From NCBI GenBank assembly GCA_023129235.1, contig JAGMCN010000046.1, positions 1 through 51,860 on the forward strand: 51,860 bases of DNA, given 5' to 3'. The stretch is from a candidate division WOR-3 bacterium. GTDB taxonomy: Bacteria > Hydrothermota > UBA3073 > JACQXS01. The position numbers and the translations under genes are program-made. The notes under the pieces were generated by a model. It made no database searches and had not been told where the DNA came from. It worked only from the letters and a program-made list of their open reading frames with translations. Of this stretch, positions 3,777 through 36,724 are shown in pieces; within the stretch, counting starts at the first letter, position 1, and each line of letters begins with the position of its first letter.

Positions 3777-3779
3777 AAT

Positions 3780-3965: not shown

Positions 3966-3966
3966 T

Positions 3967-4950
3967 ATGGTTCATATCCCGATTCGTCCGGCTAAGGGTA
4001 AGAAACATTACCGTGTTTATAAAGAAGCCAAAGGCGAAGTTAAAACTAAAGCGCGACTTTTGAAGGAAGCTTTAAGAATTGCGCATGAGAAAGATGAACA
4101 TGTAAAAGAGATTGATTTTATTCCTGGTAAATTTACATTACAGCTTCATGGTTGGTTTAATCCTGGAATCTGGAATAATATAGGAGAGTGTGAACGATTT
4201 TTAAAGAAGGTTTTAAAAGAAGGAAAAGATCCTGTGAAAGAGTTTGAAAAGAAAGGAGGTAAGTTTCATTATGATTTAAGAACTAAAAAGAAAACGGCAC
4301 CGTCCTGGTTCGGATTAACCCCTTTTCGTGCACCATGGACTGGAACTCCAGAAAATAAAGTAATGGGTACCGTTAAAGGATACCAAGTAATTACACCTGG
4401 AGGAAAAGTTCTTCAGAAGTTTTTAGCTGAAGTAGCTGAGAAGGCTATGGCTAAAGAAGGAATAGCGGAGCGCCGAGATAGAATTGAGTGGATGAAGATT
4501 AAAGCTCAATGGTTTAAACCTGATTCACCGGGAAATCCACAGAAAGATCAGCCAGCTATTATGATTGCTATTGAATTTTATAAACCAGCTTGTATTCATA
4601 GAAGAGAATTAGATTTCTTTGATATTACTTATTTTGGAGATTATCTTAAGGGCCGATACTATAATCGTTTAGTTGAAAGAAAGATTGCGACTGATGAGCT
4701 TACAGAGTGGCAAAAGCAAGATATTAAAAAGAAGAAGGCTGCTGCTTTTTATAATCTTTCTTTCTATTTTTGGAAGGCTAAAGATCAATGGGGTGATCCT
4801 GGAACTCCTTATACTATGAAAGAAGTTCATCAAGCTGCTTTAGGAACGAAGACTTTGGCTAAAGTTGCAGCTCCGAAAAAAAAGAAACCTAAAAAAGTAA
4901 AAGAGATAAAGGAGTTGAAGCCTCCTGAAGCTACTAAAGAATTTCATTAA
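3967..4950 (+). CDS. LigD-type 3'-phosphoesterase-like protein (with an insertion)
   Basis: FTLQLHG...(about 40 aa insert)...KFHYDLRTKK..SWFGLTPFRAPW resembles the LigD PE core (QKHxxxxLHYDFRLE..SWAVPKGPS). ITYFGDYLKGRYYNRLVER resembles the PE C-terminal block (L.GekLkGrw.LvR). Alignment by eye only. Confidence 0.45.
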   Translation: MVHIPIRPAKGKKHYRVYKEAKGEVKTKARLLKEALRIAHEKDEHVKEIDFIPGKFTLQLHGWFNPGIWNNIGECERFLKKVLKEGKDPVKEFEKKGGKFHYDLRTKKKTAPSWFGLTPFRAPWTGTPENKVMGTVKGYQVITPGGKVLQKFLAEVAEKAMAKEGIAERRDRIEWMKIKAQWFKPDSPGNPQKDQPAIMIAIEFYKPACIHRRELDFFDITYFGDYLKGRYYNRLVERKIATDELTEWQKQDIKKKKAAAFYNLSFYFWKAKDQWGDPGTPYTMKEVHQAALGTKTLAKVAAPKKKKPKKVKEIKELKPPEATKEFH

Positions 4951-4951
4951 T

Positions 4952-5308
4952 ATGGAATTAAAACCACCTTATAAAATTGATCACCTTCCTATAAAAGAAC
5001 TACCAATGCAGATTATTATTTCTCCACTTAAAGAGAAATATAAACCAACAGGAAGACCTACTCGAGAATTCAGTGCTTTGAAGGAAGATATTAAAAAAAA
5101 TGGTCTTAAGGTTCCTATTTTAGTTCGAAGGGTGGGAGATAAGGAAAGACAGTTTTTTAAGATTAAGGCAGGTTTTATCTCGATTATAGATGGAGGTCAT
5201 AGATTTACAGCTTGCGAAGAGCTGGGTAAGAATGTTATCCGGTGTCGAATGATGGATCGAGATTACTGGCATAAAATAAATAATCATCTAGATTTGAGTA
5301 AGTTTTAA
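4952..5308 (+). CDS. ParB N-terminal-like nuclease domain protein
   Basis: ISIIDGGHRFTACEELG matches the ParB/sulfiredoxin DGxHR box, preceded by a PILV block (KVPILVRRV). Confidence 0.6.
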   Translation: MELKPPYKIDHLPIKELPMQIIISPLKEKYKPTGRPTREFSALKEDIKKNGLKVPILVRRVGDKERQFFKIKAGFISIIDGGHRFTACEELGKNVIRCRMMDRDYWHKINNHLDLSKF

Positions 5309-6783: not shown

Positions 6784-7800
6784 ATGGCCGCATTAACAGA
6801 GTTAGAGACCGCAACGCAGATGTATTTTATGCCCGTGGTCCAGAATCAAATCTGGACAGTTTCTCCTATTCTACATAGGATTTTCAAGATGGCTAAGGAA
6901 GGTCAGTGGGGTTTAGCCTCACCTTCTTATGACGGTCGAGAGATCGTGGAACCTCTTGATTATCAGACTGTAGTTTCGGCAGGAGCTCAACATGGAGCTT
7001 ATAATACTGGTACTACTTGGCAGTGGGGTGAACAAGCAAGTTTAGGAGGCGCTCATTATTCATGGAAGATGTACTTTGTTGGAATTGCTATTCATAACTT
7101 AAATGTTGCTTATCAGCAAGGAAAGTCTAAGTTATTTGATTTAGCAGCTCAACGTTTGAAAAGTGCAGCTCATGTATTGAGAGACGACCTTGCTACAGAT
7201 TTTTATGCTAATAATGATGGAACTGGTGATAACATGATGGGTATGGCATCCTTAACTTCTAATACCGCTACTATTGGTGGAATTGCTCAGGGAGCTACTG
7301 GTTGGTGGCAAGTCTATAAAGACGCCCCTGGAGCCCGAGATTTATCCTGGAATATTCTAAATGTAGGATGGTATGCAACTAAGAAGTATGGTGCTCAGGA
7401 TCCTCCCACTTTATTGGTAACTACCGAAGGAGCAATGCAAGTTTATGAAGAGAACTTAACTAAAGTAACTACCACTGGTGGTGGAGCTTTAGCAAGTCTT
7501 CCTTTAGTTGCTTTGATGGCAGGTACCAAAGGTCCAAGAGTAATTGATGGTGGTTTTGAAGCATTTTATTTCAAAAGAATTCCGATGGTTTCAGATCCTT
7601 ATTGTACTGCTGGTAAACTTTATATCATTAATGAAAGATATCTCCATTGGAGAGTTTTGAAGAATTTTGAAAGCACTGGTTGGATCCAGCAAAGAGTAAA
7701 TGGTTTGGATAAAGCAACTTGTACCATCTTCGGATACGGAGCAATGACTTCATCTGCAAATCGAAAGCACGGAATTTTAGCCGACTTAAACGAAAGCTAA
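6784..7800 (+). CDS. putative major capsid protein
   Basis: 338 aa with non-biased composition, sitting after the scaffold-like gene and followed by a strong terminator. Assigned by position and size. Fold not verified. Confidence 0.6.
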   Translation: MAALTELETATQMYFMPVVQNQIWTVSPILHRIFKMAKEGQWGLASPSYDGREIVEPLDYQTVVSAGAQHGAYNTGTTWQWGEQASLGGAHYSWKMYFVGIAIHNLNVAYQQGKSKLFDLAAQRLKSAAHVLRDDLATDFYANNDGTGDNMMGMASLTSNTATIGGIAQGATGWWQVYKDAPGARDLSWNILNVGWYATKKYGAQDPPTLLVTTEGAMQVYEENLTKVTTTGGGALASLPLVALMAGTKGPRVIDGGFEAFYFKRIPMVSDPYCTAGKLYIINERYLHWRVLKNFESTGWIQQRVNGLDKATCTIFGYGAMTSSANRKHGILADLNES

Positions 7801-7848
7801 TTGGTTTATATATTGTTCATTGTCCTTCCTTGTGAGGATAAGGAAAGG

Positions 7849-7877
7849 ATCTGTTATTTGACAGATTCTTTTTTATT
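7849..7877 (+). terminator. rho-independent terminator after the capsid gene
   Basis: ATCTGT (7849..7854), loop tatttg, ACAGAT (7861..7866), then TCTTTTTTATT. A second imperfect hairpin precedes it: TCCTTCCTT (7823..7831) pairing with AAGGAAAGGA (7840..7849). Confidence 0.6.
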
Positions 7878-7895: not shown

Positions 7896-8333
7896 ATGAG
7901 TATTGGAGTTAGAGTTTTTCCATATAATAAAGAGCTGGAAGAATTTTTAGAAACAAAAGGGCTTAATACAAGAGAGTCGAATGTTCATGTTCTTCATTAT
8001 TCTGGAAATAAGATTAAAGAACTTAAACATCTTTTAAAAGAAGACAAGCCGGACTTATTAGTTAATCATTCAATTCCAAGCTTTAAAGAATTTAACGATC
8101 AGATTCAGGTTTACCATCCAATTCGAACATTTGCAGATGTAATAAGACAGAAGAAAATATGGACGAATAATTTTGATTTATGTCAGCATTATTATCAAAG
8201 GCTTGGTCTTCAAAAAGAGATTCTTATAATACCTAAAAGACAAAGCAAAAAACGAGAAGTTAATTTTCAACTTGCTAGGAAGAAGGTAATAAATCTTCTT
8301 GAGAAGTTTAAAAGATTTATGCTCTGGACCTAG
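7896..8333 (+). CDS. hypothetical protein
   Basis: Track ORF of 145 aa between the capsid terminator and the giant ORF. No motif recognised. Confidence 0.5.
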   Translation: MSIGVRVFPYNKELEEFLETKGLNTRESNVHVLHYSGNKIKELKHLLKEDKPDLLVNHSIPSFKEFNDQIQVYHPIRTFADVIRQKKIWTNNFDLCQHYYQRLGLQKEILIIPKRQSKKREVNFQLARKKVINLLEKFKRFMLWT

Positions 8334-8354: not shown

Positions 8355-11300
8355 ATGGCAGAGGAATTTTTTGAAATTATAATACCAAGTGGAGCTACAG
8401 CTTCTGCCTTGGCTAAAAAGTACGGAACAGATCTTGATACTATCAAAAGATTAAATCCGCAGATTAAAGATATTGATAAGATCTATGCTGGCGATAAAAT
8501 GAAATTGCCAAAGTTTGAAGTTCCTAAGATTCCTGAGGTCCCAAAACTTCCTAAAAATTATAGCCTAGATCTTGAAACTTATTTAAAGAAATTATATTCG
8601 GGAGGCTATACCTTTGCTCCTTTTGCAAGAGAACGAATGGGAGAAGATTTGCAGAAGCTTTATCCTAGCATGGATGTATGGAAAGATGTTTATACTAGAG
8701 CGCCGGATGGATGGGAGAAAGAGGCTTATTGGAAGTTAGTAATTCCAACTCCAAAGCTGCCAAAAATAATCAAGACATCAACCTGGAAAGAGGTTGATTT
8801 TTCTGTTACTAGAGATATAGCAAAGCCAGTATATAAACAAGCAAAGAAAGTAGCTCTTGATATTATAACGAAAGTAAAGGAGACTCCGGTGGTTTCTGAT
8901 ATTATTAAGAAAACTAAAGATATTACGAGAGCTTATGTAATGAAACCTATTACTACTAAATTCCCAAAGCAGACAGAACGTTTGGGTCAACTCCCAGATT
9001 TTGTTGAGAAAGCTATTAGTACTCCTGAACCAGGACCGCTGACGCCTATAATTAAAAAGATATCTAGAGAATATTTAGGTCCAGCAATTGATAATTATAC
9101 AAGACAGATAAAAAAAGATTGGGAAAGAGATAGACCTTTGAGAGAAGAATTTATTAAAGATTGGCTTAAGTTAGTTAAGAAAATTCCTTGGATAGGTAGA
9201 AAGATAACAAAGTCTTCTCAAGAGAAAGAACTTCAGGATTTAATGGTGAAGAAGGGAATAAGAGCACTTGAAGAAAAAAAAGAACCCGAAGATTTACCTT
9301 TAGATGAATCTGTTATTTCTGGATACATAGGAAAGTTACGAGATGATCTTTTAGAATTTGTAACAAAGGCTAAGGATAGTGGTCATATTTTAAGAGTAGA
9401 TGAATCAGGATATGTTTATCAGGATGAAGAAGCTACAAATATTGCTCGTAAAAGAATTTTTGGAGAAGTTTCAGATTTATTAGAAGAACATTTTCCAGCT
9501 TCAGATCCTGTTTATAACGAAGCTATATATAAAGCACAGGAAGCAGGAGAAGCTCGGCAAACTCTGGTGAATTTATTAACTGTGAATTTTAATACCTTGT
9601 ATTATAGTTTAACAACTCCTGATGCGCAGAAAACTGAGAGTCTTCGAGAACTTTCTAAAAGTTTGAATAAGATTTTAGAAGTATCCTCGGCTCTCGAAGG
9701 TATTGATCCAACTCTCGAAAGTTTAAATAAGGAATTAGAGAAACATAATAGATCAGTAGCTAATATTGAAAAGTATTATGATGAAAATATTTCTAAATGG
9801 TGGGATGAATTAGAGAATATTCTGGGAGCTAAAGCAGCTAGTTATCTTCAAAAATCTAAAGAGTTAATAAATGAAGAGATTGATAATCTTAATAAAATAA
9901 TCGCTGATCTTCCTGAAACTAAAGTTAATAGAGTATTTGAATTATTAGGATTTATAGATCATTCTCAGACTTTCTGGAATATCCAGAATAATTTAAATGT
10001 TTTATTAGAGGATCCAAAGATAGCTGATACTCTAAGAAAATTATTCTTAGGAGATAAAAAAGTATTCTCAAAAGAATTAAAGGCATTAAATACATTAGTT
10101 AGAAACCAAGATTGGTATAAAGAAAATGAGAAGTATTTAAAAGAGGGATTTATTGGAAAAGTATTGGACTCAAGATCAGTAGAAGATTTTGAAAAATTAA
10201 GGAAAGAATTAGAAACTAATCCAGCGATTTCTGATCCACAGTTAAAAGCTGGGCTTAGAATCGTTGAGATTTTTGAGAATGATTTTAAAATATCAGATGA
10301 ATTATTTAAATTACTCCAGCGTCAAGCAAAAGCTACTAAGCTTTTTATGGATATTTCTCGAGAGAGTGCTCTTGAAAAAGAAAAGGCATGGGCTGGACAG
10401 GTAAATACTTATCTTGAAACTAAAGGATATAAAGTAATTCTAGGAGCGTTTATTCCAGGAGGATTGACCTGGCGAGATTCAATTACTGGACTTAAGTTTG
10501 CCTGGGAATCCGTAAAGGATAAAACAATTCATGTTAAGTTTCCTTATAATTTTACAAAGGAATATTATAATCTCTGGGATGGAACAAAGGTAGAATTTTG
10601 GGATTGGAAAGAGAAAAGTTATGAAGTGTCCCCATCTAAAGCTATATCAAAGGCTTGGAATTCTGTGGAATATATGTGGGATACTTTTATTTTTAGAGGT
10701 ACAGTTCCTGCTATTAATTCTGCGATGGCTCTACTCTATCAAGGCTATGCCCATTGGGGTCTTTTAGATGAGGAAGTTTTAAAAGATTGGAGGTTAGTTC
10801 AAGAAGAAGGTGGCATCAAGAATATGAAAGATTATAAATCTTGGAAATTAACTGCTTATGCAGACCCAGCCTTAAATGTCCCAGATGGATCTTACTTAAG
10901 AGAAGAAGGCTCTATTCAAAATATAGGTAAATATCTAGTAGAAGCTTGGAATTATTACAGGAGCCCAAAGGCCTATGATGAATTTGTTCCGTTAAAAGAT
11001 ACAAAAATAGAATGGATAGATGGAAAAATTAAGATAGGACCTTGGACATACGATACTCTTAACTCTCCTCAAGAACTTTGGGCTTATAATCCTCATCTTA
11101 AAGATGTTTATATAATCCCAGCTGGAACTAGAGTTTCAATTCCACGCTTCAGAAATACAGCTAGATTTACAGATTTATTTACTGATGATTTTAGATATCA
11201 ATTATACAAGGAGCATCCGGGTTTTTGGTATTTTTTCGATGAGTTTCTTCCTTTTATGATGCCGGATCCATCCACTATAGCAATTATGGCAGGAAAAACT

Positions 11301-14300
11301 ATAGGTTTAGGAATGGCAAGGACTTTTAAGTTCGATCCAAATCTAGGAATGAAACCTCTTTCTCAGGTTAAAACGCTTTTTTTCAGCACAAATTTAGCTT
11401 ATCGTTCTCAACGATTAGATTCTTTTGGACGAGAATTTATTAGACTAGCTACATTTAAGGGAGTGGATTGGAAAGTGTTTCCAAAACTTTTACATTATAA
11501 ACCAAAGATAAATGAATGGAGAGGAGCATTAGCAGATCTTACAGTATTAAAAAGCGCGCCTAGAGTGATTCAAGAAATGACATATGTTTGGCATACGAAT
11601 TTTAAAAGATTAATGGATCAAGCATTTCTTACTTATCAGTGGGAGGCTATTCTAAAAGGGATTGCAAAAGAAAAAAAGATGCCTTTGAAGGAACTAAATA
11701 AGTTAATTCAGATGGCTTTTTTTGATCCTGAGAAAATGCAGGCACCGGTGGTTCGAGAAGTTTTTCAGGCAATGAGTCTTCGAATATTTGATTTACAAAA
11801 GTGGATGGGTCAAAGACCATTCTTAGATGATGCATTAAAAGCATTATATCAGAAAGTAAAATCAACTGATTATTTAATTAGACAACAAGCTTTTAATCTT
11901 AGTTATCAAAAACTAGGAGTCTGGGGAAAAGATTTCTTTGATGATGTTACAGTAGATTATCTTCTTCCTCTAAAACAACGAAGAATTAAAAATGTAGAAA
12001 CTTATACCTATCAATTCTTAAGAAATGTAACTCCTGATAGTCAGATCCAAGCAAAAACTCAGATAGAATTAGCTAAGAAACTTTTAAAATCATGGGATGA
12101 AGATACTAAATATGCCTTTCGTGTAGCAGAAAGTGCAAAGATAGTAGTTCCTTTACCATCTGGAACTGTGTTAAAGATTGCTCCTATAGAACAACGAAGG
12201 AATATGAGGAATGCTTTTGAATGGATTGTAGAAAATAAGAAACCAACTTTAGTTATTAACCCTGATAAAGTAACACAGAGAGAGTTCGAGGCTCTTTGGA
12301 AATTAGTTGGAGATACAGTAGATCTTAGATTAACTAACTTTAATAAAATTCCAATAGCGAATGTTTATAATGTCTTTCCTCAGACTAGATATTTTAAAGG
12401 ATCTATTACTGAATATTTTAGAGTGACTCGGAGTATAAAGACTAAAAAAATTATAAGTACGGTAGGAATTGGTTCTATAGATGATGTAGCAAAGAAAATA
12501 AAGCAAGCTAAAGTAGGAAGAACACCGGCTGAAGCTCAAGAACTTTTTGGTTATTATCTTCAAAACTGGACTCCTTATGTTGAGAAAGGAGTTAGAAAAG
12601 AGTTTAAATATATAAGTTCGACTAAGGTTGGGAAAACAATAAAGGAAAAGATAGCTCTTCGAACTCAGATGCCAAGGTCTAGAAATGTTAAAGACGTAAT
12701 TGATCATTCTGCTTGGACTTTTCTGAAGAGAGAAGGAGATGAATATAGAGATTTAGTTCGATATCTTCAAAATATCTCAGTTCCTCCTAAAAAAATAAAA
12801 ACAAAAATCGGGATCACGTATGAGATAAAAGATATTAGAGATAGAATATCAGGAGATCTGACCAAGGCTCTAGATCGTCAGTTTACTAAAAAGACGGTGA
12901 CGATCTATTCAGATCGGAAACGAGAAATCTCGAAACGGGTTTTAGATATCTTTGAGAGAGAAGCAGCTGTTCAGGATTTCTTTAAACAGACTATAGAAGG
13001 GAAATCTTTTCTGAAGAGATGGAAAGATTTCATTCCAAGTATTACAGATGATCTTCTTGAAAGAAATACTACGGCTTTAAAGTCTGTGAGAACTAGAATA
13101 AAAAGAGGGAAAGCAGCAGGTAAATCAGAGTTATTTATTAAAGAACTCCAAAAAACAGAAGCGAATATTCAAGATAAAATTTGGACTCATAAGATTCAAA
13201 GATATCTTCTAGATAATTTTAGAGATAAATCTACCCTAGATCCTACTTCGTATTCACTTCTTTTGAAAGATACTTTAGGAAAGACAGAGACGACCAAAGT
13301 TTTAGAATCCATGGATGAGTTTGTCTCTTTTACTAGGAATCAATTCAATAGAACTATAAGTGATTATTGGAGAGCAGCAGGTAAAAAAGAGAAATTTATT
13401 ACTGAAGTGGAAAAACTTGATGGTATAGAAACCTTTATTAAGAAAATTCAAAAACAATATAGACTTGAACCTAGAAAGACTTCGATAAATACTATCGTGG
13501 GAAAATTAGATAAGTATTGGCCAAAGGTTAGAATTAAAGATCAGATTATTAGAGAACGAGTAATTCCATCAGCTCGAACTCTAGCTATTGAAAAGAATAA
13601 ATTAGCTCTTCAGAAAATAGGAAGAGGAAGTAAAGGAGATGCTGCTAAAGTAATAGATGATTTTGCTAAGTTTGAGATCAAAGGTGATAGAGGAATGTTT
13701 GCAACAACGATCGGTTATAAATTTAGCCAGCAAGATAGAGTCAATTTATTAGCTTTAGCTAAAGATAGCTCTAAAAGAGATACTTCTATTATTCTATATG
13801 TTTTTAATGAGACGCCGGTTGATAAACAAATTATAAAATGGATAAGAAGTCGTCCTGAGATGAAGAGTGTAAGATTGATTGTTTATGATCCTAAAACTGC
13901 TTTTATAAAAAATATTAAAGAGAAGACTGTTCCTTTACAAACTATGATAGATGAGCTTTTAGGAACTCGAGATGGCAAAGCTGTCTATGATCTTGCGAAT
14001 CCAATAGTGAGAAGAAAAGAAAGGGTCTTCACCGATCAAGAATTTTTTGACATTCTTTCTAAACTCCCAACTCAAATATCTCCTACCCTTAAAATTCCTA
14101 AAGGTCTTAGTAGGAAGTTACCAGATGGTTTATATGTTTATCCAGATGATTGGGAGAATTTTAGAATATTAATTGCCCAGAAGCTTTTAAAGAAGAATCC
14201 TAAATTGATTGAAAATACATTAGGTTTAACCCCAGATAAATTAATGAAACAAGTTTATGCTGATTTCAAGGAAATTCCCTGGGCAGATTATGTAAAGATG

Positions 14301-17300
14301 TGGCAAAAATGGGAACTTGATCCTAAGAAATTAACACAGGCATTAGGAAGAACAGAAGCTGATAGATTTCTAGAATTTCTTTATCATAATTCAAGATCAG
14401 TTTTAGATCAATTAAAAGCTCAGGGATTAGCAGTTAGTTTTGTTAAAGGAGAAATGAAAGTAAAGCGAATTCAATCTTTTAAATGGGGTTTAAGTTATAC
14501 TCAAGAACAAGCTGTGAGATTAGTAGGCCCAGGTGGATTTGTAATGGGAAGTCCTACTAGTAGAATAAGGGATCTCTTGGTAAAGAAAACATCCCCAATT
14601 ACTAAATCAATAGATGATTCTTTGAGAAGCTTTGGAAATTTCCTCCGGATGGATACCTTTAATAATTTTGATGACTGGGCGAAATATATAGATGATTTAG
14701 AAAGATTCTTAGAGAAACCAAAAGCAAGAGTGACAATTCTTAAGAATCAACTTGATATTCTGGATGATGAAATAAAGTTGTTAACTAGAGAAAAGAAATC
14801 ACCTCAAGATTTGATGGAATTAGTGCGTAAGAAAAGTGAATTAATGGGATCAGTACAAAAATCATTGAGAGCTGAGGGTAGAAATTATCAACGCTGGTTA
14901 ATTAAAATGAATAAGATGGATGATGCTTTAGAATTAGAAAGAAAGTTAAATGGATTAAGAGCAATTGTAATAGGCCCAGATGGAAATCCTATTACAGGTG
15001 TAGCGAAAGAATATTATACAGCTTATCTTTCAACAAGAAGTAAGTTTGCTAAGGAGGGATATGCAAAGCTTATTAAGAAAAATAGAAAATATACTACTAG
15101 ATGGAATAATTTAAGATTAAATGACGAATTAATAAAAGCAGCAAGTCAAGAATCTAAAAGAGTTCCTTTTATTTCTAAACAATTATCAGAGAAGGCAAAG
15201 ATTAGAAACATGTTTGAAGCTGAACTTGGGGTACTGGAGAAAAAAATAACAGGAGCTGAAAGAAAAATGGATGATCTTTTAAAAATAGTAGGGAATAAGA
15301 TATTTAAACCTACTTCTGCTCAGATTAATTTTAAGGGAATATTAAAAGCAAATTTAGTTCCTGATGATATTCTAGGAGAGGTTAATCGTAGGATGATTTC
15401 AGTTAAGAAATCACTTAAAAGTATAGAAGGTCAAATAGCAAAAACGATTAAACTTAAAGAATCAACATTTTCTTTACAGAAAGTGAAAGTAACTTTAGCC
15501 AAAGAAATAGATGATTTAGGTTCCCTTAAAAAACTTTTACCAGATTTGAAAAAATATGAGCTAGCAAAGGTTAAGATTCTACCTCGAGAACTTTGGGATC
15601 TAGTTCATGGACACCCATCTGCTACCTTTTTGAAGAAAAAAACTCAGATGGAGAAAGCTCTTTTAAGAAAGTTTTCTTCTGTTACTGGCGTTAAAGTTCC
15701 GCTTTCAAAAGAGAATGAGTCAATTCTTCGAGCGTTTAAAAATGTTCAAGCTACAGTAAAGAAACGAGCGTTTTTAGATACTGCTTCGAGAGGAAAATTA
15801 TATGATGATTTTCTTAGTAAGACTGCAGATCCTGGATATATTAAACCAGGAGCAAAAGCAGTTAGGGTTCCATATTCTCGATTAGATATTACTAAAAAAA
15901 TAGATGATTTACAAGAAGCAAGAATCCAGACTATTATTGTAACTCAAAGAGTAAATAATTTGGGTCCATATGTTGCGGGACGGCCAATTAGAGTGCTTCA
16001 TATTCCAGAACTAAGTACTAGTCAGGTTCCACAGTTAGCTGAGTTAGGAGGATTTATGACAGATATTGAATATAAAGGTTTCCAGAAAGTATGGAAAGCA
16101 ATGCTTCAGGATAAAAGTTTAATCTTTTGGGATTCTGATTTCACTCGAGCTACTGAAGTTGCTAATAAATTAAAGCAAATTCTAAAAGTAGAGAGCCCAT
16201 TACGATATCATTCAATGCAAGTAGGTTCAGATTTATTCTTTTCAGTAATTAAAAAGCGGGAAATTGCAAAGGGAAAACCATGGAGGTTTGCTCGAGGAAG
16301 AAAAGAATATCTAAAAGTTTGGGGAGACCCGAAAGGCCAGGCTATTATTACTACTAAAGCTTTAGAACCAAAGAAGATAATGCATCATGTATATAAAAGA
16401 CATGATATTGAGAAAGGTTATCTTGATTTAGTGGCGCGTTTAGATAAATCTTCTTTGACACCAGCAAAGTTATATATTCCTGGATCGATAGCTAATCCAA
16501 AAAAATATATCTTGGGTCATATTCAAGAACGGATTCCAACATTTGTTTTAGCACCAGAGGTAAAAACTATTAGAATTTCTTATTTAAGAAATGTAGCGAA
16601 GGCTCATAAAGAACAATATGCTCAGTTAATATTTCCAAAGAATCCTACAAGTGGAGAAAGGATTATAATGGAATATTTAAAATCGAAGGGAGTTACTTAT
16701 TCTCAAGCGAAGGTAGCTCTTAAAAGAGAATTATTTTTAAATCCCTCTCTTATTTATGGTAAGAACGTAAACTGGAATTATTCGATAAGTAAAGAATTTC
16801 CAACCTGGCTTTTTCCATATGGTACAAAGTTTGATCCAAAAAGACAGGCAGCTTTCGATGCGGCATTCATAAGTAAAAGAATATTTAAATCTAAAGCACG
16901 ATTACATCAAGAATTAAAATCAACATTTTTAAGAGATGTAAATGATTGGTTATCAGATGGTAGAATTTATATTCCTAAGTTTTTACAAGATGAACGTTAT
17001 GCATTAAGAGCAGATCCGAGAGATCTTTTAGCTCGGTTGAGTTTAACTTATAATCGAGAAACAGCTAAGAAGAGTTGGTTTAAGCTTAAGAAAATTCAAC
17101 TAGATACAGCTGAAGAAATGGAAATTCGTCGTCTAGTAGAAGCAGGAGGACGGAAGATTCTTTCAGATGCAGAAAAACTTTGGATTGTGAAGAAAGAAAA
17201 TCTAATTAAATCGATGCTTTCAAAATGGAATAGAAAGAAGCCGAACATTGCTCAACAGGAATGGGTAGCAAAAACAAGGAAGATGATAAATGATTTAGTA

Positions 17301-20300
17301 CTATCTAAGAAAAAATACCTAACAAAAAATCAGCTCTTAGTTTTGGAAAAGAATAGGAGACGTTGGGAGGATACTTTAGCTTTAGTAGATGTTGTATTTA
17401 AATGGGATCGAACCCCAGGATTCTGGGAAAAAATAGCTCAGAGACAAGCAGAAAAATTAGGTCTTAAATATGCCCGAGCTCAAAATTTATATTTATTAGC
17501 CGATTTTCCTTTGACTGGATTTGAAAAGATAGTAAATTCAACTGCTTATATTAAAACTTTAAGAGCGACTGCTCATATGTTGCCTCAGTTTTGGAGAGCT
17601 GGATTAACGGTTCATGGTTACATGAAAAGTATTTGGATTAAGATGATTCTATATTGGAGAATTGCTTGGTATTTGAGAAATACTTATGATGATGCGATTC
17701 GAGGAGCGATGGCTTCTCATTCAGTAGAATATTTCTTTGAATGTCAGTCAGCGTTTGGAGCAGCTTCAGCTTCTTTTCTACGCAAGTTTGCTAAGGATAT
17801 AATAGATTTTCCAAAGTTTATTTTCAAACCTGTTAAAGGTGAAGTTAAAGAATTAGCAAATACAATAGGAGGGAAGATTGGAAAAACAGTCTCAAGATAT
17901 TGGGATGATGCTTTGAGTAAAGCAAGAAAGACTCCATACCTACCCTGGGATCCTAAGACAGCAAATAAGATTAGGAAAAAAGGGTTTTGGCAAAGCTTAG
18001 AAAAGAAATTCTGGGATAAGCATTTGGCTCCCATAATGGCATGGGACGAGGCTTTAGAATATGGATCATATACTCCTAAAGGAGAATGGATTACAAAACA
18101 TACAATAGACTGGATATGTGAGGCTGGAATGTATCAGGTGACTTCAGATCCTGTACAGCTAAGAAAATTAATATCTATTTTAGATGAGACCACGATGTGG
18201 CGAAGATTAAAAAAACGAGCGTTTGTACTTAATGCAGATATAGAAGTCTTTGCTAATTTTACTGAGAATGTAAGACGTCAGTTTTTAGCTCATGAATTGT
18301 TATTTAAAAAAGCAATGTCGGTAACTGAGACTAAAGCAAAGGTCTGGAATTATATGTTTAATTACCGAGACCTGTCGATTGTTGGTAAGAATTTTCGATA
18401 TCTCTTTCCATTCTGGGCTTTTAATACTAAGAGCTTTACATTATGGACAAAGACAATTGCAAAGGGCGGACCGAGATATTGGCTAGCAGCTAGAGCTTTT
18501 ATGGATAGTTGGACCGAAGTTACTCAATCTTTGCCAGAATGGGCAAGAGGGAGGATCCCAATTGGAAATGATGTATATTGGTATCCATGGATTTCTTTAG
18601 CTCAAGTTTTAGAATTTTGGAAAGATCCTTGGAAACAGATTAAACAATTTGCTGAGAATCCACACCAAGTTCCTTTAGGCTTAGGATGGAATCCTTTCTG
18701 GACTAATGTTATTAATTATCAAACAGAGAAAAGATTCTTCGATATCTCTATTGATATCAAAAAGCAGACTGGATGGACGTCTGAAGAAATAGAAAGATTT
18801 ATAAGTGATCAGAAATTAAAGCGAGATATTTCCGGAGAACCATTTTGGATGGAAGCTCTTTTCACTTATGTTCCCTTTGCTAGAGCTATGAAATCTCTTT
18901 TTGAGGTAGATATGTATTCCTTAACAGATGGAACTTCAATTCTAAAATCTAGAAAGTTAAGAGAGTTAATGAAACAGTTCGGATTAAACATTCTAAAATG
19001 GGAAGACATAGATATTATGCAGAAGATTTATTTTGATATGCCACCTCGTCTTCGATCCTTGATGGAGAAAGAAATCTCTAAAGAAGATCCTGCAGCTTGG
19101 CAAGCACAAAAGAATTATTGGGGTAAAACTTTATGGATTAAGGCTTCAAGAATTGCAAAGAAAGATCCAGCGCTTGGAACATACTATTTACAGCTTTGGG
19201 GATGGAATCAAATTTATTGGGATATGAGAGAGAAGCAAGGAAGCGCTGCGGCTCAGCGCTGGTTAGAACGTCATCCAGATATTAGAAAAGAATTAGAAAC
19301 TATGTGGTCAGAGAATAAAGAAACTATTCCATGGCACATGTGGCAACAACGAGAATATAATATGGGTCAGTTAGAAACATTAAATAGAGCAATGGCAGAT
19401 CGAATTTATAAGAAAGAGATTTTCGATCGAGCTGAGATTCTCGGTCTAGAAATTCCTTTTGGAATCCCAGGGGATAAAGATGAGTTTCTTACTTTAACTC
19501 TAGATGCTCAAGGAAATCCTCGTTTTGTTAATCCTGAGGAGTGGACAACCATAGTGAGTCGAGAGTGGGTTGATAAACTTATAAATAAGACGCAGATGAG
19601 TTGGCAAGAATATATTAAGGATGTGGCTCGGATCAGATATCATGAGTGGTTAATGGAAGAAGGAAGGGAAAAACTTCCAGAGAATAAAGCTTTCGATAGA
19701 AAAATGAAAGAATGGCAACTGATTCTTCCTCATAATATTGATGAGCTGCCTGATAAAGAAGCGGATAAATATTTTACTACTTATTGGAAATTTTTTGAGC
19801 ATTATTTTTCAGATGCGCAAAAGTCAATGTATTTCACAATGTTGAAGGGACGTCATGGTGAATGGTTCGTAGAATATAGGAAGAAGTTGAAAGATTATTA
19901 TGATAGGTGGTCGGTCTTGATTGATAAATTTAGAGAGAAAGATTTCAACTTCTTTGAAGAATTTTATAAAGAACCAGAATGGTTTCAAAAATTATACTTT
20001 CTTAGATACCCTACTAAAGAAAAATGGTATCCTTTCGCTAGAGATTGGACAAAGTTACTTCATTCAATTGAGATAGAAGAAAAGAAAACTTATGGATTCC
20101 AGCATGAGAAACGTAAAGAAGCATCAGATTATTTCTGGGATCATGAAGATATCGTAAAAAATTATTGGGATAAAGATGAACCTGGATTCTATCAGTATAT
20201 GAAAGATTGGCAGAAAATTACATTGATTAGTGAATCCAATCCTGAGAAATACTTTGAGCTTTTCTTTAACCAATCACCAGAGTTTCAGAAACGGTTCTTC

Positions 20301-22736
20301 GATAGAAATCCAAAGAAGAAATTATATTATCCTTTTATCCGCCACTGGGTAAGTTTAATTCAAATAGATAAAGAAAATTGGGAGAAAAAAGGAATAAGAA
20401 CTAGAGAGGCAAAAGATTATTTCTGGTCTTCCGCTAAGAAAACACAGAGACAGGCTTATGCTAAAGATAAACTAATTGCTTCTGATAAAACTATTTTAGA
20501 TTATCTTAAGGTTTGGGATGAGATATTTATTAAAACAGAGGATAATGTTGAAGATTATTTTAAATTATTTTATGATCAACCGGATTGGTTTAGAAAACAT
20601 TTCTTTTTCTCTAATCCTGAGAAGAAGATTTATTATAGACCAGTTAGTGAATGGCTGAAACGAATTGCGAGCGATAAGATAGCTCAAAAGAAAACTGGAA
20701 TAAATCCAGGTAAGGCCAAAGAATATTATCTCAAGCATATTAAAGGAGTAAAAAAGGTGAGAGAAGCTTGGGATAAAGAAAATCCAGGAATTATAAATTA
20801 TCTTGATACCTGGGGCAAAATTATTAAAAGTACAGAAGAAAACCCGGAGGTTTATTTCAAAGAATTTTATAAACAAAGCAAAGATTTTCAGAATCGATTC
20901 TTCAAGAATAATCCTAATAAAGAATTATATTATCCTAAGGTAAGAGAATGGATTGAAGCAATTAGAATAGATAAGAAGAATTGGGAGGAAAAAGAAAAAA
21001 GAACCCATATCGCTCAAGATTTCTTTAATTCTTTTAAGAATACGAAAGAAGGTAGAGCTTATGGAAGAGATAATCCTATTACTGAAACTAAAAATATTAT
21101 TGATTATATCGAACTTTGGCAGGAAGTAATAAAAGAGACCGAAGAAAATCCAAGAGCATTCTTTGAAGTATTTGATAAACAACCAGACTGGTTTAAAAAT
21201 CATTATTATTTTAATCATCCTTTAAAAAAGATTTATTATTCTTTTGCTAGAGAGTTAGCCAAACTTGATAGTGAAGCTTGGGCTAAGGAATTTTGGAAGC
21301 CAAAGTATGAAATAGAACGTAAGGCTTGGGATGAAGATAAACCTGGCTTCTTAGATTATATGAGATTCTGGAAGAAGCTCTCGAGCTTAGCTGAAACTGG
21401 ATCTTGGGAGCTTTACTTTAATTATTATTATTCTTCTGAAAATAGAAAGAATCGGGAACGACATGAGCGTAATCATCCTGGGGTGGATAAGAAATTTAAA
21501 TTATATCGAGAATATCAGGAAATGCCATCAATAACTTGGGAAGACAGAAGAGCTAGAAGAGAATTTTTAAAAGCGCATCCGCTCTTGATAGAATGGTGGG
21601 CTGAGGATATTTCAGTAGATGAAGCTAAGACTCGAGAATTCGTAGAGAAATATTTTAGCTTTCAAGATAATATTCCAGTCACAGGCAAGGGGCGAGAGTA
21701 TTTCATAGAGGTTAGAAAATGGCAAGCAGCTGCTGATAAATTTCTTCAAGATCATCCAGAGGTACTTCTATTTTTGACAAGACGACCTAAACAATATATA
21801 GGAGAGAAGGCAGAATTACTGGCTCTTGCTGAAGAATATCGCTCTCTTGGAACTCAGATTGAGAAGAACACGTTTCTTGAAAATCATCCGGAGCTTAAAG
21901 AATATTTTCTAAATCAGAATCCACCTGGGATTAGAGATATTATTAAAATTCAGCAGGAATATTTTAGGAAGACGGATGAAGATAAACAAGCTTTTCTTGA
22001 AAGACATCCAGAACTTTTAGAGTACTGGGAAGCTAAGATTCTTCCTTGGTCATATTTCTTTGAACCAGGTATATTTAGGATATGGCAAGAGACTGTAAAT
22101 AAGATTGATCGTTGTTATGATAAATATCTGGTAGGAGATTGGACTATAGCTGAAACTATGAGAGAAGCACTTCCAGATCGTTATGAAAATCCAGGAGATA
22201 CTCCTGAAGCTGATTGGTTCAGGACAGTCATTTATCGAATGGCAATGAAAACCTGGATAGGACTTTTAGAGAAACATGAGTTTAAATCTATCTACTTTTT
22301 CAGACAGCTTCCTCGTTGGTTACGAGATATGTATTATAAGAAACATCCTGAGAAAAAAGATTTATCATATGAATCATTATCTCGATTCCTAGAAGAGCCC
22401 TTGAGGATTTGGGAATCAACAGATCCTAAGCTTGTGTGGGCTTTTAAGATGAGAACAAAATATGGGAAGGATATGCCTTTCGATGTTTATAGGAAAGTAA
22501 GAAAGATTTTAGTAGGACGTGGAGTCTGGGAAGATAGATCGAAATGGACTAGAGAACAATGGAATAATTATTGGATCAGAGAAACTATGAAAAGAAATGC
22601 TTTACGAGATCGAGATCTTCAGAATATTCCTTTACTCAAGAAATCTTTAGATGAGGTTAAGAGAATTTTTCCTATTCGATTACCAAAACCTTCTTTTGGT
22701 AAACCTAGAGTAGGTAGAATTGAACCTCTATTTTAA
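8355..22736 (+). CDS. giant virion-associated protein candidate (4793 aa) with N-terminal LysM domain and C-terminal tandem repeats
   Basis: Uninterrupted 14,382-nt frame. LysM signature IIIPSGATASALAKKYGTDLDTIKRLNPQIKDIDKIYAGDKMKLP lies at about 8376..8510. No catalytic motif recognised by eye. Sits between the capsid and tail genes, where podoviruses encode internal/ejected proteins. Confidence 0.85.
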   Translation: MAEEFFEIIIPSGATASALAKKYGTDLDTIKRLNPQIKDIDKIYAGDKMKLPKFEVPKIPEVPKLPKNYSLDLETYLKKLYSGGYTFAPFARERMGEDLQKLYPSMDVWKDVYTRAPDGWEKEAYWKLVIPTPKLPKIIKTSTWKEVDFSVTRDIAKPVYKQAKKVALDIITKVKETPVVSDIIKKTKDITRAYVMKPITTKFPKQTERLGQLPDFVEKAISTPEPGPLTPIIKKISREYLGPAIDNYTRQIKKDWERDRPLREEFIKDWLKLVKKIPWIGRKITKSSQEKELQDLMVKKGIRALEEKKEPEDLPLDESVISGYIGKLRDDLLEFVTKAKDSGHILRVDESGYVYQDEEATNIARKRIFGEVSDLLEEHFPASDPVYNEAIYKAQEAGEARQTLVNLLTVNFNTLYYSLTTPDAQKTESLRELSKSLNKILEVSSALEGIDPTLESLNKELEKHNRSVANIEKYYDENISKWWDELENILGAKAASYLQKSKELINEEIDNLNKIIADLPETKVNRVFELLGFIDHSQTFWNIQNNLNVLLEDPKIADTLRKLFLGDKKVFSKELKALNTLVRNQDWYKENEKYLKEGFIGKVLDSRSVEDFEKLRKELETNPAISDPQLKAGLRIVEIFENDFKISDELFKLLQRQAKATKLFMDISRESALEKEKAWAGQVNTYLETKGYKVILGAFIPGGLTWRDSITGLKFAWESVKDKTIHVKFPYNFTKEYYNLWDGTKVEFWDWKEKSYEVSPSKAISKAWNSVEYMWDTFIFRGTVPAINSAMALLYQGYAHWGLLDEEVLKDWRLVQEEGGIKNMKDYKSWKLTAYADPALNVPDGSYLREEGSIQNIGKYLVEAWNYYRSPKAYDEFVPLKDTKIEWIDGKIKIGPWTYDTLNSPQELWAYNPHLKDVYIIPAGTRVSIPRFRNTARFTDLFTDDFRYQLYKEHPGFWYFFDEFLPFMMPDPSTIAIMAGKTIGLGMARTFKFDPNLGMKPLSQVKTLFFSTNLAYRSQRLDSFGREFIRLATFKGVDWKVFPKLLHYKPKINEWRGALADLTVLKSAPRVIQEMTYVWHTNFKRLMDQAFLTYQWEAILKGIAKEKKMPLKELNKLIQMAFFDPEKMQAPVVREVFQAMSLRIFDLQKWMGQRPFLDDALKALYQKVKSTDYLIRQQAFNLSYQKLGVWGKDFFDDVTVDYLLPLKQRRIKNVETYTYQFLRNVTPDSQIQAKTQIELAKKLLKSWDEDTKYAFRVAESAKIVVPLPSGTVLKIAPIEQRRNMRNAFEWIVENKKPTLVINPDKVTQREFEALWKLVGDTVDLRLTNFNKIPIANVYNVFPQTRYFKGSITEYFRVTRSIKTKKIISTVGIGSIDDVAKKIKQAKVGRTPAEAQELFGYYLQNWTPYVEKGVRKEFKYISSTKVGKTIKEKIALRTQMPRSRNVKDVIDHSAWTFLKREGDEYRDLVRYLQNISVPPKKIKTKIGITYEIKDIRDRISGDLTKALDRQFTKKTVTIYSDRKREISKRVLDIFEREAAVQDFFKQTIEGKSFLKRWKDFIPSITDDLLERNTTALKSVRTRIKRGKAAGKSELFIKELQKTEANIQDKIWTHKIQRYLLDNFRDKSTLDPTSYSLLLKDTLGKTETTKVLESMDEFVSFTRNQFNRTISDYWRAAGKKEKFITEVEKLDGIETFIKKIQKQYRLEPRKTSINTIVGKLDKYWPKVRIKDQIIRERVIPSARTLAIEKNKLALQKIGRGSKGDAAKVIDDFAKFEIKGDRGMFATTIGYKFSQQDRVNLLALAKDSSKRDTSIILYVFNETPVDKQIIKWIRSRPEMKSVRLIVYDPKTAFIKNIKEKTVPLQTMIDELLGTRDGKAVYDLANPIVRRKERVFTDQEFFDILSKLPTQISPTLKIPKGLSRKLPDGLYVYPDDWENFRILIAQKLLKKNPKLIENTLGLTPDKLMKQVYADFKEIPWADYVKMWQKWELDPKKLTQALGRTEADRFLEFLYHNSRSVLDQLKAQGLAVSFVKGEMKVKRIQSFKWGLSYTQEQAVRLVGPGGFVMGSPTSRIRDLLVKKTSPITKSIDDSLRSFGNFLRMDTFNNFDDWAKYIDDLERFLEKPKARVTILKNQLDILDDEIKLLTREKKSPQDLMELVRKKSELMGSVQKSLRAEGRNYQRWLIKMNKMDDALELERKLNGLRAIVIGPDGNPITGVAKEYYTAYLSTRSKFAKEGYAKLIKKNRKYTTRWNNLRLNDELIKAASQESKRVPFISKQLSEKAKIRNMFEAELGVLEKKITGAERKMDDLLKIVGNKIFKPTSAQINFKGILKANLVPDDILGEVNRRMISVKKSLKSIEGQIAKTIKLKESTFSLQKVKVTLAKEIDDLGSLKKLLPDLKKYELAKVKILPRELWDLVHGHPSATFLKKKTQMEKALLRKFSSVTGVKVPLSKENESILRAFKNVQATVKKRAFLDTASRGKLYDDFLSKTADPGYIKPGAKAVRVPYSRLDITKKIDDLQEARIQTIIVTQRVNNLGPYVAGRPIRVLHIPELSTSQVPQLAELGGFMTDIEYKGFQKVWKAMLQDKSLIFWDSDFTRATEVANKLKQILKVESPLRYHSMQVGSDLFFSVIKKREIAKGKPWRFARGRKEYLKVWGDPKGQAIITTKALEPKKIMHHVYKRHDIEKGYLDLVARLDKSSLTPAKLYIPGSIANPKKYILGHIQERIPTFVLAPEVKTIRISYLRNVAKAHKEQYAQLIFPKNPTSGERIIMEYLKSKGVTYSQAKVALKRELFLNPSLIYGKNVNWNYSISKEFPTWLFPYGTKFDPKRQAAFDAAFISKRIFKSKARLHQELKSTFLRDVNDWLSDGRIYIPKFLQDERYALRADPRDLLARLSLTYNRETAKKSWFKLKKIQLDTAEEMEIRRLVEAGGRKILSDAEKLWIVKKENLIKSMLSKWNRKKPNIAQQEWVAKTRKMINDLVLSKKKYLTKNQLLVLEKNRRRWEDTLALVDVVFKWDRTPGFWEKIAQRQAEKLGLKYARAQNLYLLADFPLTGFEKIVNSTAYIKTLRATAHMLPQFWRAGLTVHGYMKSIWIKMILYWRIAWYLRNTYDDAIRGAMASHSVEYFFECQSAFGAASASFLRKFAKDIIDFPKFIFKPVKGEVKELANTIGGKIGKTVSRYWDDALSKARKTPYLPWDPKTANKIRKKGFWQSLEKKFWDKHLAPIMAWDEALEYGSYTPKGEWITKHTIDWICEAGMYQVTSDPVQLRKLISILDETTMWRRLKKRAFVLNADIEVFANFTENVRRQFLAHELLFKKAMSVTETKAKVWNYMFNYRDLSIVGKNFRYLFPFWAFNTKSFTLWTKTIAKGGPRYWLAARAFMDSWTEVTQSLPEWARGRIPIGNDVYWYPWISLAQVLEFWKDPWKQIKQFAENPHQVPLGLGWNPFWTNVINYQTEKRFFDISIDIKKQTGWTSEEIERFISDQKLKRDISGEPFWMEALFTYVPFARAMKSLFEVDMYSLTDGTSILKSRKLRELMKQFGLNILKWEDIDIMQKIYFDMPPRLRSLMEKEISKEDPAAWQAQKNYWGKTLWIKASRIAKKDPALGTYYLQLWGWNQIYWDMREKQGSAAAQRWLERHPDIRKELETMWSENKETIPWHMWQQREYNMGQLETLNRAMADRIYKKEIFDRAEILGLEIPFGIPGDKDEFLTLTLDAQGNPRFVNPEEWTTIVSREWVDKLINKTQMSWQEYIKDVARIRYHEWLMEEGREKLPENKAFDRKMKEWQLILPHNIDELPDKEADKYFTTYWKFFEHYFSDAQKSMYFTMLKGRHGEWFVEYRKKLKDYYDRWSVLIDKFREKDFNFFEEFYKEPEWFQKLYFLRYPTKEKWYPFARDWTKLLHSIEIEEKKTYGFQHEKRKEASDYFWDHEDIVKNYWDKDEPGFYQYMKDWQKITLISESNPEKYFELFFNQSPEFQKRFFDRNPKKKLYYPFIRHWVSLIQIDKENWEKKGIRTREAKDYFWSSAKKTQRQAYAKDKLIASDKTILDYLKVWDEIFIKTEDNVEDYFKLFYDQPDWFRKHFFFSNPEKKIYYRPVSEWLKRIASDKIAQKKTGINPGKAKEYYLKHIKGVKKVREAWDKENPGIINYLDTWGKIIKSTEENPEVYFKEFYKQSKDFQNRFFKNNPNKELYYPKVREWIEAIRIDKKNWEEKEKRTHIAQDFFNSFKNTKEGRAYGRDNPITETKNIIDYIELWQEVIKETEENPRAFFEVFDKQPDWFKNHYYFNHPLKKIYYSFARELAKLDSEAWAKEFWKPKYEIERKAWDEDKPGFLDYMRFWKKLSSLAETGSWELYFNYYYSSENRKNRERHERNHPGVDKKFKLYREYQEMPSITWEDRRARREFLKAHPLLIEWWAEDISVDEAKTREFVEKYFSFQDNIPVTGKGREYFIEVRKWQAAADKFLQDHPEVLLFLTRRPKQYIGEKAELLALAEEYRSLGTQIEKNTFLENHPELKEYFLNQNPPGIRDIIKIQQEYFRKTDEDKQAFLERHPELLEYWEAKILPWSYFFEPGIFRIWQETVNKIDRCYDKYLVGDWTIAETMREALPDRYENPGDTPEADWFRTVIYRMAMKTWIGLLEKHEFKSIYFFRQLPRWLRDMYYKKHPEKKDLSYESLSRFLEEPLRIWESTDPKLVWAFKMRTKYGKDMPFDVYRKVRKILVGRGVWEDRSKWTREQWNNYWIRETMKRNALRDRDLQNIPLLKKSLDEVKRIFPIRLPKPSFGKPRVGRIEPLF
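19750..22030 (+). repeat. in-frame tandem protein repeats inside the giant ORF
   Basis: At least 6 units of about 100 aa (period about 255-305 nt). Anchor pattern is NPExYFxxFYxQPxWFxxxFFxxNPxKKxYYP, with anchors near 19932, 20229, 20536, 20832, 21137 and 21391. Four shorter FLxxHPELxxYW-type units follow near 21552, 21735, 21870 and 21988. Confidence 0.75.
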
Positions 22737-22787: not shown

Positions 22788-23420
22788 ATGAAAGTAGCTA
22801 ATTTTATTAAAGCTTGTTCTAGATCTATCTATGATCGAGATTGTAATGTGATCTCAGCTCAGGAGTGGATAGAGATTCTTAATTTTCAAGCAGGTGAACT
22901 CTATCCTGAGATTACTTATAGAGGAACTATTACAGGTACGATAACTTCTTTAGGAACTTCGTATCAATTAGATTTAAGCGGAAGTGAATATGATAATCTA
23001 GAACAAATTAAAGAGATTTATCTTGTAGATAGTAATGGTTTTAAATATCCCTATACTAACTGGGTCTTTGAGAAAGACATAAAGCTTCTATTTTTTGATC
23101 CAGAGACTGATTCTTCTTCAACAATATCTTTAACATCTTATACTTCGTATATAGTAGTTTGGATGGGTTATATTCCTGAGATAGATGAGACCCAAGATAC
23201 TATTGATTTAGATCTTCCAAAGTTGACTGTCTTTAAAAAGATCTGTATTAGAGAAGCTTTAAAACGAATTCTGTATGATCATGCAAAATTAGATAGGTAT
23301 CGAACTCTTGTTACTCGAATGAATGAATATGCATTGATGGGGATTCTTAGAGATCTAACGGCAGAAATTGAGCTTGGTAAAAGGAAACTCGCGGATTCTC
23401 GTAGAGTAATTTCTTTCTAA
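22788..23420 (+). CDS. hypothetical structural protein (size and position like a tail adaptor / tubular protein A)
   Basis: 210 aa, first gene after the promoter in the tail block. Assigned by position only. Confidence 0.45.
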   Translation: MKVANFIKACSRSIYDRDCNVISAQEWIEILNFQAGELYPEITYRGTITGTITSLGTSYQLDLSGSEYDNLEQIKEIYLVDSNGFKYPYTNWVFEKDIKLLFFDPETDSSSTISLTSYTSYIVVWMGYIPEIDETQDTIDLDLPKLTVFKKICIREALKRILYDHAKLDRYRTLVTRMNEYALMGILRDLTAEIELGKRKLADSRRVISF

Positions 23421-35346: not shown

Positions 35347-35352
35347 AATAAT

Positions 35353-35640: not shown

Positions 35641-35683
35641 TTAAGTCATATAATATCAATTTTAATAATCGCTATAATTTAAT

Positions 35684-36721: not shown

Positions 36722-36724
36722 AAT

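Follow-up and report, generated by a model that had tools for sequence, protein, structure and literature searches.

A family of giant LysM-bearing proteins in an uncultivated phage lineage and its possible role as an internal virion protein

The stretch of DNA analysed here, called the window throughout, is contig JAGMCN010000046.1, apparently at its full length of 51,860 nucleotides (assembly GCA_023129235.1, filed under a candidate division WOR-3 bacterium). It carries phage head and tail genes, and between them lies a single open reading frame (ORF) encoding a giant protein with an N-terminal LysM domain. We favour, at a probability of roughly 0.6, the reading that this giant serves an uncultivated short-tailed phage, about 95 kb in genome size, as an internal virion (ejection) protein. 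Short-tailed phages need an envelope-crossing channel built from proteins stored in the head, and the question of how ejected proteins pass the narrow portal and refold is still open, no more than a handful of systems having been examined. Both ejection proteins and ejected polymerases of giant size are already known; the giant LysM family described here was previously unnamed. In the literature and annotation libraries searched, we found no description of a conserved 4,300-5,900-residue LysM family that has neither a polymerase nor a detectable lytic domain and is encoded beside the nozzle gene of an uncultivated podovirus lineage.

Results

The original prediction, read from the bases of the window, described an uninterrupted frame of 4,793 codons, and this description was upheld. 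Base composition predicts about 405 stop codons in the frame and none was seen (P ~1e-184), with 233-561 stops in each of the other five frames across the same interval. GC content by codon position followed the same GC1>GC2>GC3 pattern in each slice of 600 codons, which gives no hint of a hidden or compensated frameshift. An identical giant protein is encoded on the 94,673-bp ENA contig ERZ23498683 (scaffold_64), which matches the window over 32.7 kb. Six homologues collinear over their full length, together with about 20 more giants in which the C-terminal third is shared, all come from independent contigs, which disposes of the concern that a chimeric assembly had created the gene. Judged from sequence, the ORF is not an assembly artefact.

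The predicted product has a mass of 567 kDa, an isoelectric point of 9.5 and three cysteines. Its richness in aromatic residues, also part of the original prediction, was confirmed, with tryptophan, phenylalanine and tyrosine together making up 15-19% of the C-terminal third. A segment that had been singled out as hydrophobic and conserved-looking, FRYLFPFWAFN, fared less evenly: it is conserved and forms part of a family signature, but it is not of the transmembrane type. The highest 19-residue Kyte-Doolittle average anywhere in the giant protein was 1.16, below membrane-helix grade, and transmembrane segments were rejected on this basis.

Relatives were sought by running residues 2950-4149 exhaustively with HMMER against 1.84 billion cluster representatives. 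This search returned 29 proteins at E<1e-10, among them 22 giants of 3,032-5,943 residues, of which 20 exceed 4,300 residues. By this measure 22 full-length relatives keep the ORF as a single giant gene. Six of these (P0002-5, P0007 and P0009) are collinear with the window protein from first to last residue, with identity rising from 22-30% over the N-terminal two thirds to 36-49% over the last third. The remaining members have only the C-terminal ~1,750 residues in common with it, and this core, which contains the FRYLFPFWAFN segment, is common to the whole family. A degenerate DNA pattern derived from the signature motif recovered about 25 further true members from three collections: two IMG/VR contigs, 22 JGI or GenBank metagenome contigs and one contig of a metagenome-assembled genome (MAG), with GC contents from 28% to 50%. 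Family contigs are independent of each other and 30-100 kb long, several of them 83-100 kb and a number close to 92-100 kb. A word-indexed protein search missed the family, residues 2951-3750, residues 561-1300 and the core alignment all returning only a fragment of the same protein; the aromatic, lysine-rich, repeat-like sequence seems to saturate the word-search filter (8,000 candidates). One true member, at 28% identity over residues 3090-4717, lies on a 47.5-kb contig (CAZJYT010000001.1, L011) that was binned in a 'Candidatus Saccharibacteria' MAG; the placement either points to a host for some of the lineage or reflects faulty binning.

The features of the giant protein and of its gene module are collected in Table 1. 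The predicted murein-binding LysM domain at the N-terminus, the one domain named in the original prediction, was recovered by Pfam PF01476 at 35.7 bits against a gathering cut-off of 20.9 (E 8e-9). A profile of the full-length seven-sequence alignment also matched solved LysM domains among the PDB sequences, at E 5e-7 (4uz2) to 6e-5. An N-terminal LysM is present in most relatives, although N-termini vary between one and four LysM domains, PG_binding_1 plus LysM, or, in one clade, no recognisable LysM. Beyond the first LysM and its linker, residues 60-2950 are poorly conserved and rich in lysine and arginine. A second, degenerate LysM-like module near residue 900 is usually present across the family at a conserved position, and nothing known matched the rest of this region. 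The window copy of the module is a weak match to the LysM-like Phage_tail_X family (E 0.013). Its counterpart in the P0005 orthologue passes the LysM cut-off (24.2 bits against 20.9), and other relatives gave weak matches to LysM, LysM_OapA or Phage_tail_X. A PHROG baseplate-hub match at residues 906-935 overlaps the same module.

The variable middle accommodates additional domains in some relatives. An RNase_T/DnaQ-type 3'-5' exonuclease was found there in three of ten relatives, namely P0016 (residues 1775-1941; locus L008), P0018 and P0023, each of which also holds three N-terminal LysM domains. P0015 carries an extra insertion of about 2,000 residues with an HExxH-like motif; neither this insertion nor an HExxH region in P0013 matched Pfam.

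Conservation is concentrated towards the C-terminus. Blocks A and B hold the invariant columns of the family, and block C is the best conserved part of the giant protein. The most conserved motif, at residues 3347-3376 (FRYLFPFWAFNTKS...), overlaps the signature motif, and R3348, P3352 and F3353 are invariant within it. Between blocks B and C lie tandem repeats of about 100 residues, which number from one to five in the relatives according to a repeat hidden Markov model (HMM). An AlphaFold2 (AF2) model of residues 3230-3960, built from a 17-sequence alignment, was all-alpha with about 35 mostly short helices, at a predicted local distance difference test score (pLDDT) of 68.9 and a predicted template modelling score (pTM) of 0.43.

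Table 1. Features of the giant protein and of its gene module in the window
Feature	Coordinates	Strand	Residues	Basis and remarks
Major capsid protein, HK97 fold, SU10/Kuravirus-like lineage	6784..7800	+		phrog_9953, E 6e-24
145-aa gene	7896..8333	+		Precedes the giant gene in 8 of 10 contexts; one gene further upstream in L005 and L049
Giant ORF	8355..22736	+	4,793	ATG start, no internal stop
LysM domain 1	8397..8510	+	15-52	Pfam PF01476; predicted peptidoglycan-binding
Pro/Lys-rich linker PKFEVPKIPEVPKLPK after LysM 1	8511..8564	+		Read from translation
Second, degenerate LysM-like module, ...LWAYNPHLKDVYIIPAGTRVSIP	11007..11144	+	~885-930	Orthologue scores, conserved position
Conserved block A	17532..17849	+	~3060-3165	Motif W-I-x-x-V-L-x-x-R-P-A-W-x-x-x-N-x-x-D-D
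Conserved block B, universal all-alpha core (predicted)	18072..19874	+	~3240-3840	HMMER family search, phmmer envelopes, alignment, AF2 model
Signature motif F/Y-D/N-Y-x-D-(8 residues)-R-x-x-F-P-F-x-x-F	18357..18434	+	3335-3360	In block B; invariant Y, R, P and F columns
Five ~100-aa tandem repeats	19875..21344	+	3841-4330	Self-BLAST, repeat HMM; ...NPxxYFxxFYxQPxWFxxxFFxxNPxKxxYYP...
Conserved block C, C-terminal domain	21345..22733	+	4331-4793	Family alignments; ends ...G-x-I-x-P-F/L-F
210-aa gene	22788..23420	+		Always after the giant gene; orthologues at E 1e-12 to 1e-80 in 15 loci
765-aa nozzle-like (tail hub) protein, predicted beta-propeller	24017..26314	+		AF2 model and Foldseek

The gene lies where the original prediction placed it, between the capsid and tail genes: it follows an HK97-type capsid gene and one 145-residue gene and precedes conserved tail genes. 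In all ten gene contexts fetched and compared by phmmer, the giant occupies a fixed module that runs from a gene of ~135-165 residues through the giant, a ~210-residue gene, sometimes one or two small genes, a gene of 695-1,131 residues and a ~236-residue gene to a gene of 550-940 residues. The last is fibre-like, with a conserved N-terminus and a variable C-terminus that in one case contains Laminin_G_3. Most contexts place the module directly after the lambda-type large terminase (TerL), portal-sized, scaffold-sized and capsid genes; in three (L009, L051 and L052) it is intact but detached from the head genes. Synteny across the ten contexts thus bears out the view of the giant as a conserved member of a virion structural module. 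The 145-residue gene matched no family, its orthologues being found by phmmer against related loci. The 210-residue protein, for which no match was found among the PDB sequences, is proposed as a candidate adaptor solely from its position. For one neighbouring gene of the module, the few source names recorded read "hypothetical protein" or nothing.

The 765-residue protein is far better conserved than the giant and is informative about the particle. Its AF2 model (10-sequence alignment; pLDDT 65.6, pTM 0.52) is all-beta, and its top Foldseek matches were podovirus nozzles, namely those of LME-1, VP1, Pan3, P22 (gp10), Kp7 (T7-like gp12), Pa223, Sf6 (gp8) and SU10 (gp17), at E 7e-11 to 7e-8 over 540-920 aligned columns. 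The capsid protein of locus L050 is homologous to that of the window (E 1.9e-105) and passes the Pfam SU10_MCP family (28.2 bits against 24.1). No giant gene was found within 10 kb of the closest IMG/VR capsid relative (L001). Because the 765-residue neighbour models as a nozzle and a relative's capsid protein passes SU10_MCP, the particle is most likely short-tailed and of the podovirus type; the podovirus-like tail originally proposed is to this extent supported by the modelled beta-propeller.

Directly after the capsid gene, a 15-pair hairpin followed by a T-run was observed (7841-7874, forward strand). It is likely an attenuating terminator that would lower expression of the 145-residue gene and the giant relative to the capsid, and a terminator is annotated at a comparable point in SU10.

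Searches of the giant protein for known relatives were otherwise negative. Scans against Pfam and PHROGs returned no family beyond LysM-type matches. Neither the single protein nor the core profile matched any PDB sequence, profiles of the neighbouring genes likewise gave no PDB sequence match, and the full-length seven-sequence profile found only LysM structures and coiled-coil noise. With tblastn against 50,697 GenBank phages the non-LysM part remained unmatched, and no isolate of the lineage was found. Foldseek comparison of the core model with PDB and BFVD gave only E >0.1 and template modelling (TM) scores of about 0.1. Family profiles run against the SU10 proteins, including gp20-24, yielded noise only. 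Two further expectations are therefore borne out: no catalytic domain is recognisable in the Pfam, PHROGs and PDB-sequence searches, and most of the protein is unannotated sequence space, unmatched in GenBank phages and, for the modelled core, among PDB and BFVD folds. A virion RNA polymerase of the N4 or crAss type was tried and rejected, no DxDGD, DxDxD or DGD motif and no Pfam or PDB polymerase match having been found.

Discussion

We infer head packaging, ejection and conduit formation from gene position, tail type, the LysM domain and all-alpha character only. In the proposed mechanism, a few copies of the giant protein would be built into the head at assembly. At infection, the largely alpha-helical chain would thread out through portal, adaptor and nozzle ahead of the DNA, and the N-terminal LysM domain and the second LysM-like module would grip peptidoglycan. 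The C-terminal alpha-helical core and the ~100-residue repeats would refold and so extend the short tail across the envelope. The poorly conserved middle would serve as a spacer and as a slot for optional cargo, such as the DnaQ-type exonuclease of three relatives. One polypeptide would then do the work that is split among gp14, gp15 and gp16 in T7 or gp20-24 in SU10. Three cysteines and no transmembrane helix are what would be expected of a chain that must unfold and refold, and the exonuclease insert fits a protein that reaches the host cell.

Comparison with the ejectosomes of T7 (gp14-16), PhiM1 and cyanophage A4 (PMC11440229, PMC12002296) brings out both likeness and difference. All are alpha-helical products of a short-tailed-phage structural module with the presumed role of extending the short tail across the envelope. 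The giant, however, is one chain of 4,793 residues, whereas T7 uses three proteins totalling ~2,260 residues, and its gene precedes the adaptor and nozzle genes, whereas the T7 ejectosome genes follow them. T7 gp16 carries a murein-directed lytic transglycosylase domain at its N-terminus. The position of the LysM domain matches that location, but the giant is predicted to bind murein, has no detected hydrolase and shows no sequence or fold similarity to the T7 proteins. The ejectosome interpretation of the original prediction therefore stands as far as the structural module, the podovirus tail and the N-terminal LysM are concerned, and falls short on similarity to T7 gp14-16.

The Kuravirus podovirus SU10 holds five ejection proteins in its head, gp20-gp24, of which gp20 is a transglycosylase (PMC9509320). 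Its capsid lineage is related to that of the giant's phage, by way of the relative that passes SU10_MCP, and both appear to share a beta-propeller nozzle. The SU10 ejection proteins (KM044272) are separate, however, measuring 260-1,473 residues and 2,956 residues in all, and are encoded after the needle gene; no family profile of the giant matched any SU10 protein. The giant is accordingly best described as a putative functional counterpart, by analogy, of the T7 gp14-16 and SU10 gp20-24 families and not as a member of either.

The giant RNA polymerases of N4 (Schitoviridae) and crAss-like phages are packaged in the podovirus head and ejected into the host, the N4 enzyme being ~3,500 residues long (PMC13434306). 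Ejection of the N4 virion RNA polymerase (vRNAP) shows that proteins of ~400 kDa can pass through the tail. Unlike these enzymes, the giant contains no DxDGD or DGD motif and matched neither the solved N4 vRNAP nor any other polymerase. Neither N4 vRNAP nor the crAss-like polymerases are known to carry LysM.

Several points weigh against assignment as an ejection protein. Homology in sequence or fold to known ejection or internal virion proteins, such as T7 gp14-16, P22 gp7, gp16 and gp20, SU10 gp20-24 and N4 gp51 and gp52, was not found in PHROGs, PDB sequences, Foldseek searches of PDB and BFVD with residues 3230-3960, or direct comparison with SU10 gp20-24. Pfam, PHROGs and PDB sequences gave binding modules only, with no match to a peptidoglycan hydrolase (transglycosylase, lysozyme or peptidase). 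The nozzle call comes from a model of pLDDT 66 with TM-scores of 0.24-0.48, and generic WD40 propellers scored ~1e-7, only ~1,000-fold worse in E than the nozzles. The core model is of middling confidence (pLDDT 69, pTM 0.43) and covers 731 of 4,793 residues. The giant's 567 kDa would also be ~1.5-fold the size of the RNA polymerase that N4 ejects (~3,500 residues). Finally, its lineage is known from genes alone, and from these we infer that it is present in the virion.

Other roles were weighed against the same evidence. That the giant is mainly a head-packaged effector carrier like the 'polyvalent proteins', delivering nucleases or anti-defence functions with LysM helping at the wall on entry, is unlikely, although it draws on real resemblances. 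Polyvalent proteins are described as very large, virion-associated and often equipped with peptidoglycan-directed domains (PMC5512222, Iyer et al. 2017), and the giant family shares this size, a presumed link to the virion and the wall-directed domains. Three relatives carry the exonuclease in their variable middle, and P0015 has its insertion with an HExxH-like motif. The window protein, however, has no recognisable enzymatic domain in Pfam, PHROGs or PDB-profile searches, and no MuF, LPD or other hallmark domain was seen in ten relatives or in the P0015 insert. What the whole family conserves is a non-enzymatic, alpha-helical C-terminal core, and this points to a mainly structural role. We consider it improbable that the giant is a polyprotein cut into smaller products or a non-virion protein that happens to be encoded in the late operon, for example a scaffold inside the cell or a factor for wall remodelling or lysis. 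As 99% of its sequence has no assigned function and it is large enough to be a precursor, such a role is conceivable; against it stand the strict synteny with adaptor-position and nozzle-like genes, kept even in the contexts where capsid genes and module lie apart (L009, L051 and L052), the lack of a recognisable protease gene in the module and the separate encoding of a candidate lysin at 29372-30493.

An external virion part, for instance a long fibre, whisker or tail-tip appendage anchoring the particle to exposed peptidoglycan, would account for glycan-binding LysM modules at the cell surface, tandem repeats, a gene in a structural operon and a conserved extreme C-terminus (...PFF) that could dock onto the particle. 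We regard it as quite improbable. Fibres are usually beta-rich trimers attached by the N-terminus, with a variable receptor-binding C-terminus, whereas here binding lies at the N-terminus and conservation is highest at the C-terminus; the window has other genes, at 27011-28681 and 44320-48930, for fibre-like proteins with variable C-termini and lectin domains, and an exonuclease insert would make no sense outside the cell. A tape measure of a very long-tailed siphovirus is the least probable of these readings and was rejected on aromatic periodicity, gene context and the nozzle fold. With 1.5 Å for each of its 4,793 residues, the specified tail would be ~720 nm long, comparable to those of the Thermus phages P23-45 and P74-26. 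The giant does resemble tape measures with wall-directed domains, such as T5 Pb2 and mycobacteriophage tape measure proteins (TMPs): it too is large, basic and helical, has a murein-directed module and differs in repeat number among relatives. Its gene also lies between head and distal tail genes, and Foldseek gave weak, non-significant matches to tape measures in BFVD, albeit at TM-scores of ≤0.1. The conserved large downstream gene, however, models as a podovirus-type nozzle and not as a Dit/Tal hub, and the one to three small genes between capsid and giant (one, of 145 residues, in the window) include none recognisable as a tail tube or chaperone pair. No TMP family matched in Pfam or PHROGs, an 11-residue aromatic periodicity was not seen outside the repeats, and the core model consists of short packed helices and not long coiled coils. 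In a short-tailed particle, moreover, no tape measure is needed.

The identification as an ejection protein may be extended, tentatively and with more doubt than belief on our part, to a self-contained 'virtual tail'. Here the head-stored chain would clamp peptidoglycan through two LysM modules and refold into an alpha-solenoid conduit, its length tuned by the number of ~100-residue repeats and its middle taking swap-in cargo. If so, the family would be a new, widespread entry machine in an uncultivated podovirus lineage with genomes of ~90-100 kb. As one member lies on a contig binned as Candidatus Saccharibacteria, its hosts may have unusual or thick envelopes.

Should the giant be an ejection protein, concentration of the whole channel function in one chain of 4,300-5,900 residues would make it an extreme case in which to test how proteins are translocated through a phage tail, larger than the ejected polymerase of N4, and the family would constitute a modular scaffold with natural cargo slots. 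With each protein, the family contributes ~4,700 residues of fold space as yet uncharted. Its definition by signature motif, alignment and gene module is supplied here for annotation of metagenomes, where these proteins are now unnamed or called "hypothetical protein".

Other genes of the window

Several further genes of the window, all on the forward strand, were recorded. After the lambda-type large terminase lies a gene for a 1,147-residue protein (window 1-3168; full in L002, 1371-4814) with a portal-sized N-terminus. It is homologous (E 3e-205) to an 842-residue L050 protein without the extra domain, and its C-terminus is an ATP-dependent DNA ligase/mRNA-capping-enzyme-like nucleotidyltransferase domain (PF01068, E 1.8e-9). 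The combination recurs in L005, L049, L053 and L054; fusion of a portal-position protein to a ligase/capping-type enzyme is unusual. Among the head-assembly genes, a protein of 118 residues with a ParB-like N-terminal domain is encoded at 4952-5308.

Downstream of the module, the ORF at 29372-30493, a candidate endolysin, gave weak matches to Peptidase_C1 (papain-like) and PG_binding_1 (E ~1e-3); in the public gene call its start is placed later, giving 346 residues. A run of sugar-modification genes of ~11 kb follows at 32026-43343. It encodes a methyltransferase plus cytidylyltransferase-like protein, a cupin, an NAD-dependent epimerase/dehydratase, rhamnosyl- and GT8-type glycosyltransferases, a radical SAM protein, a GFO/IDH/MocA oxidoreductase and Methyltransf_24, and may serve modification of DNA, virion or host-surface glycans. 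An ORF resembling LAGLIDADG homing endonucleases (43378-43806; PF00961, E 1.9e-5) separates this cluster from the 1,536-residue ORF at 44320-48930. The latter contains a concanavalin-A-like lectin domain (Laminin_G_3, E 7e-18) and probably encodes a fibre or host-binding protein. Within it, at 46-48 kb, GC skew drops from ~+0.2 to -0.01 and AT skew falls to -0.19, a shift in composition that suggests a recently acquired segment.

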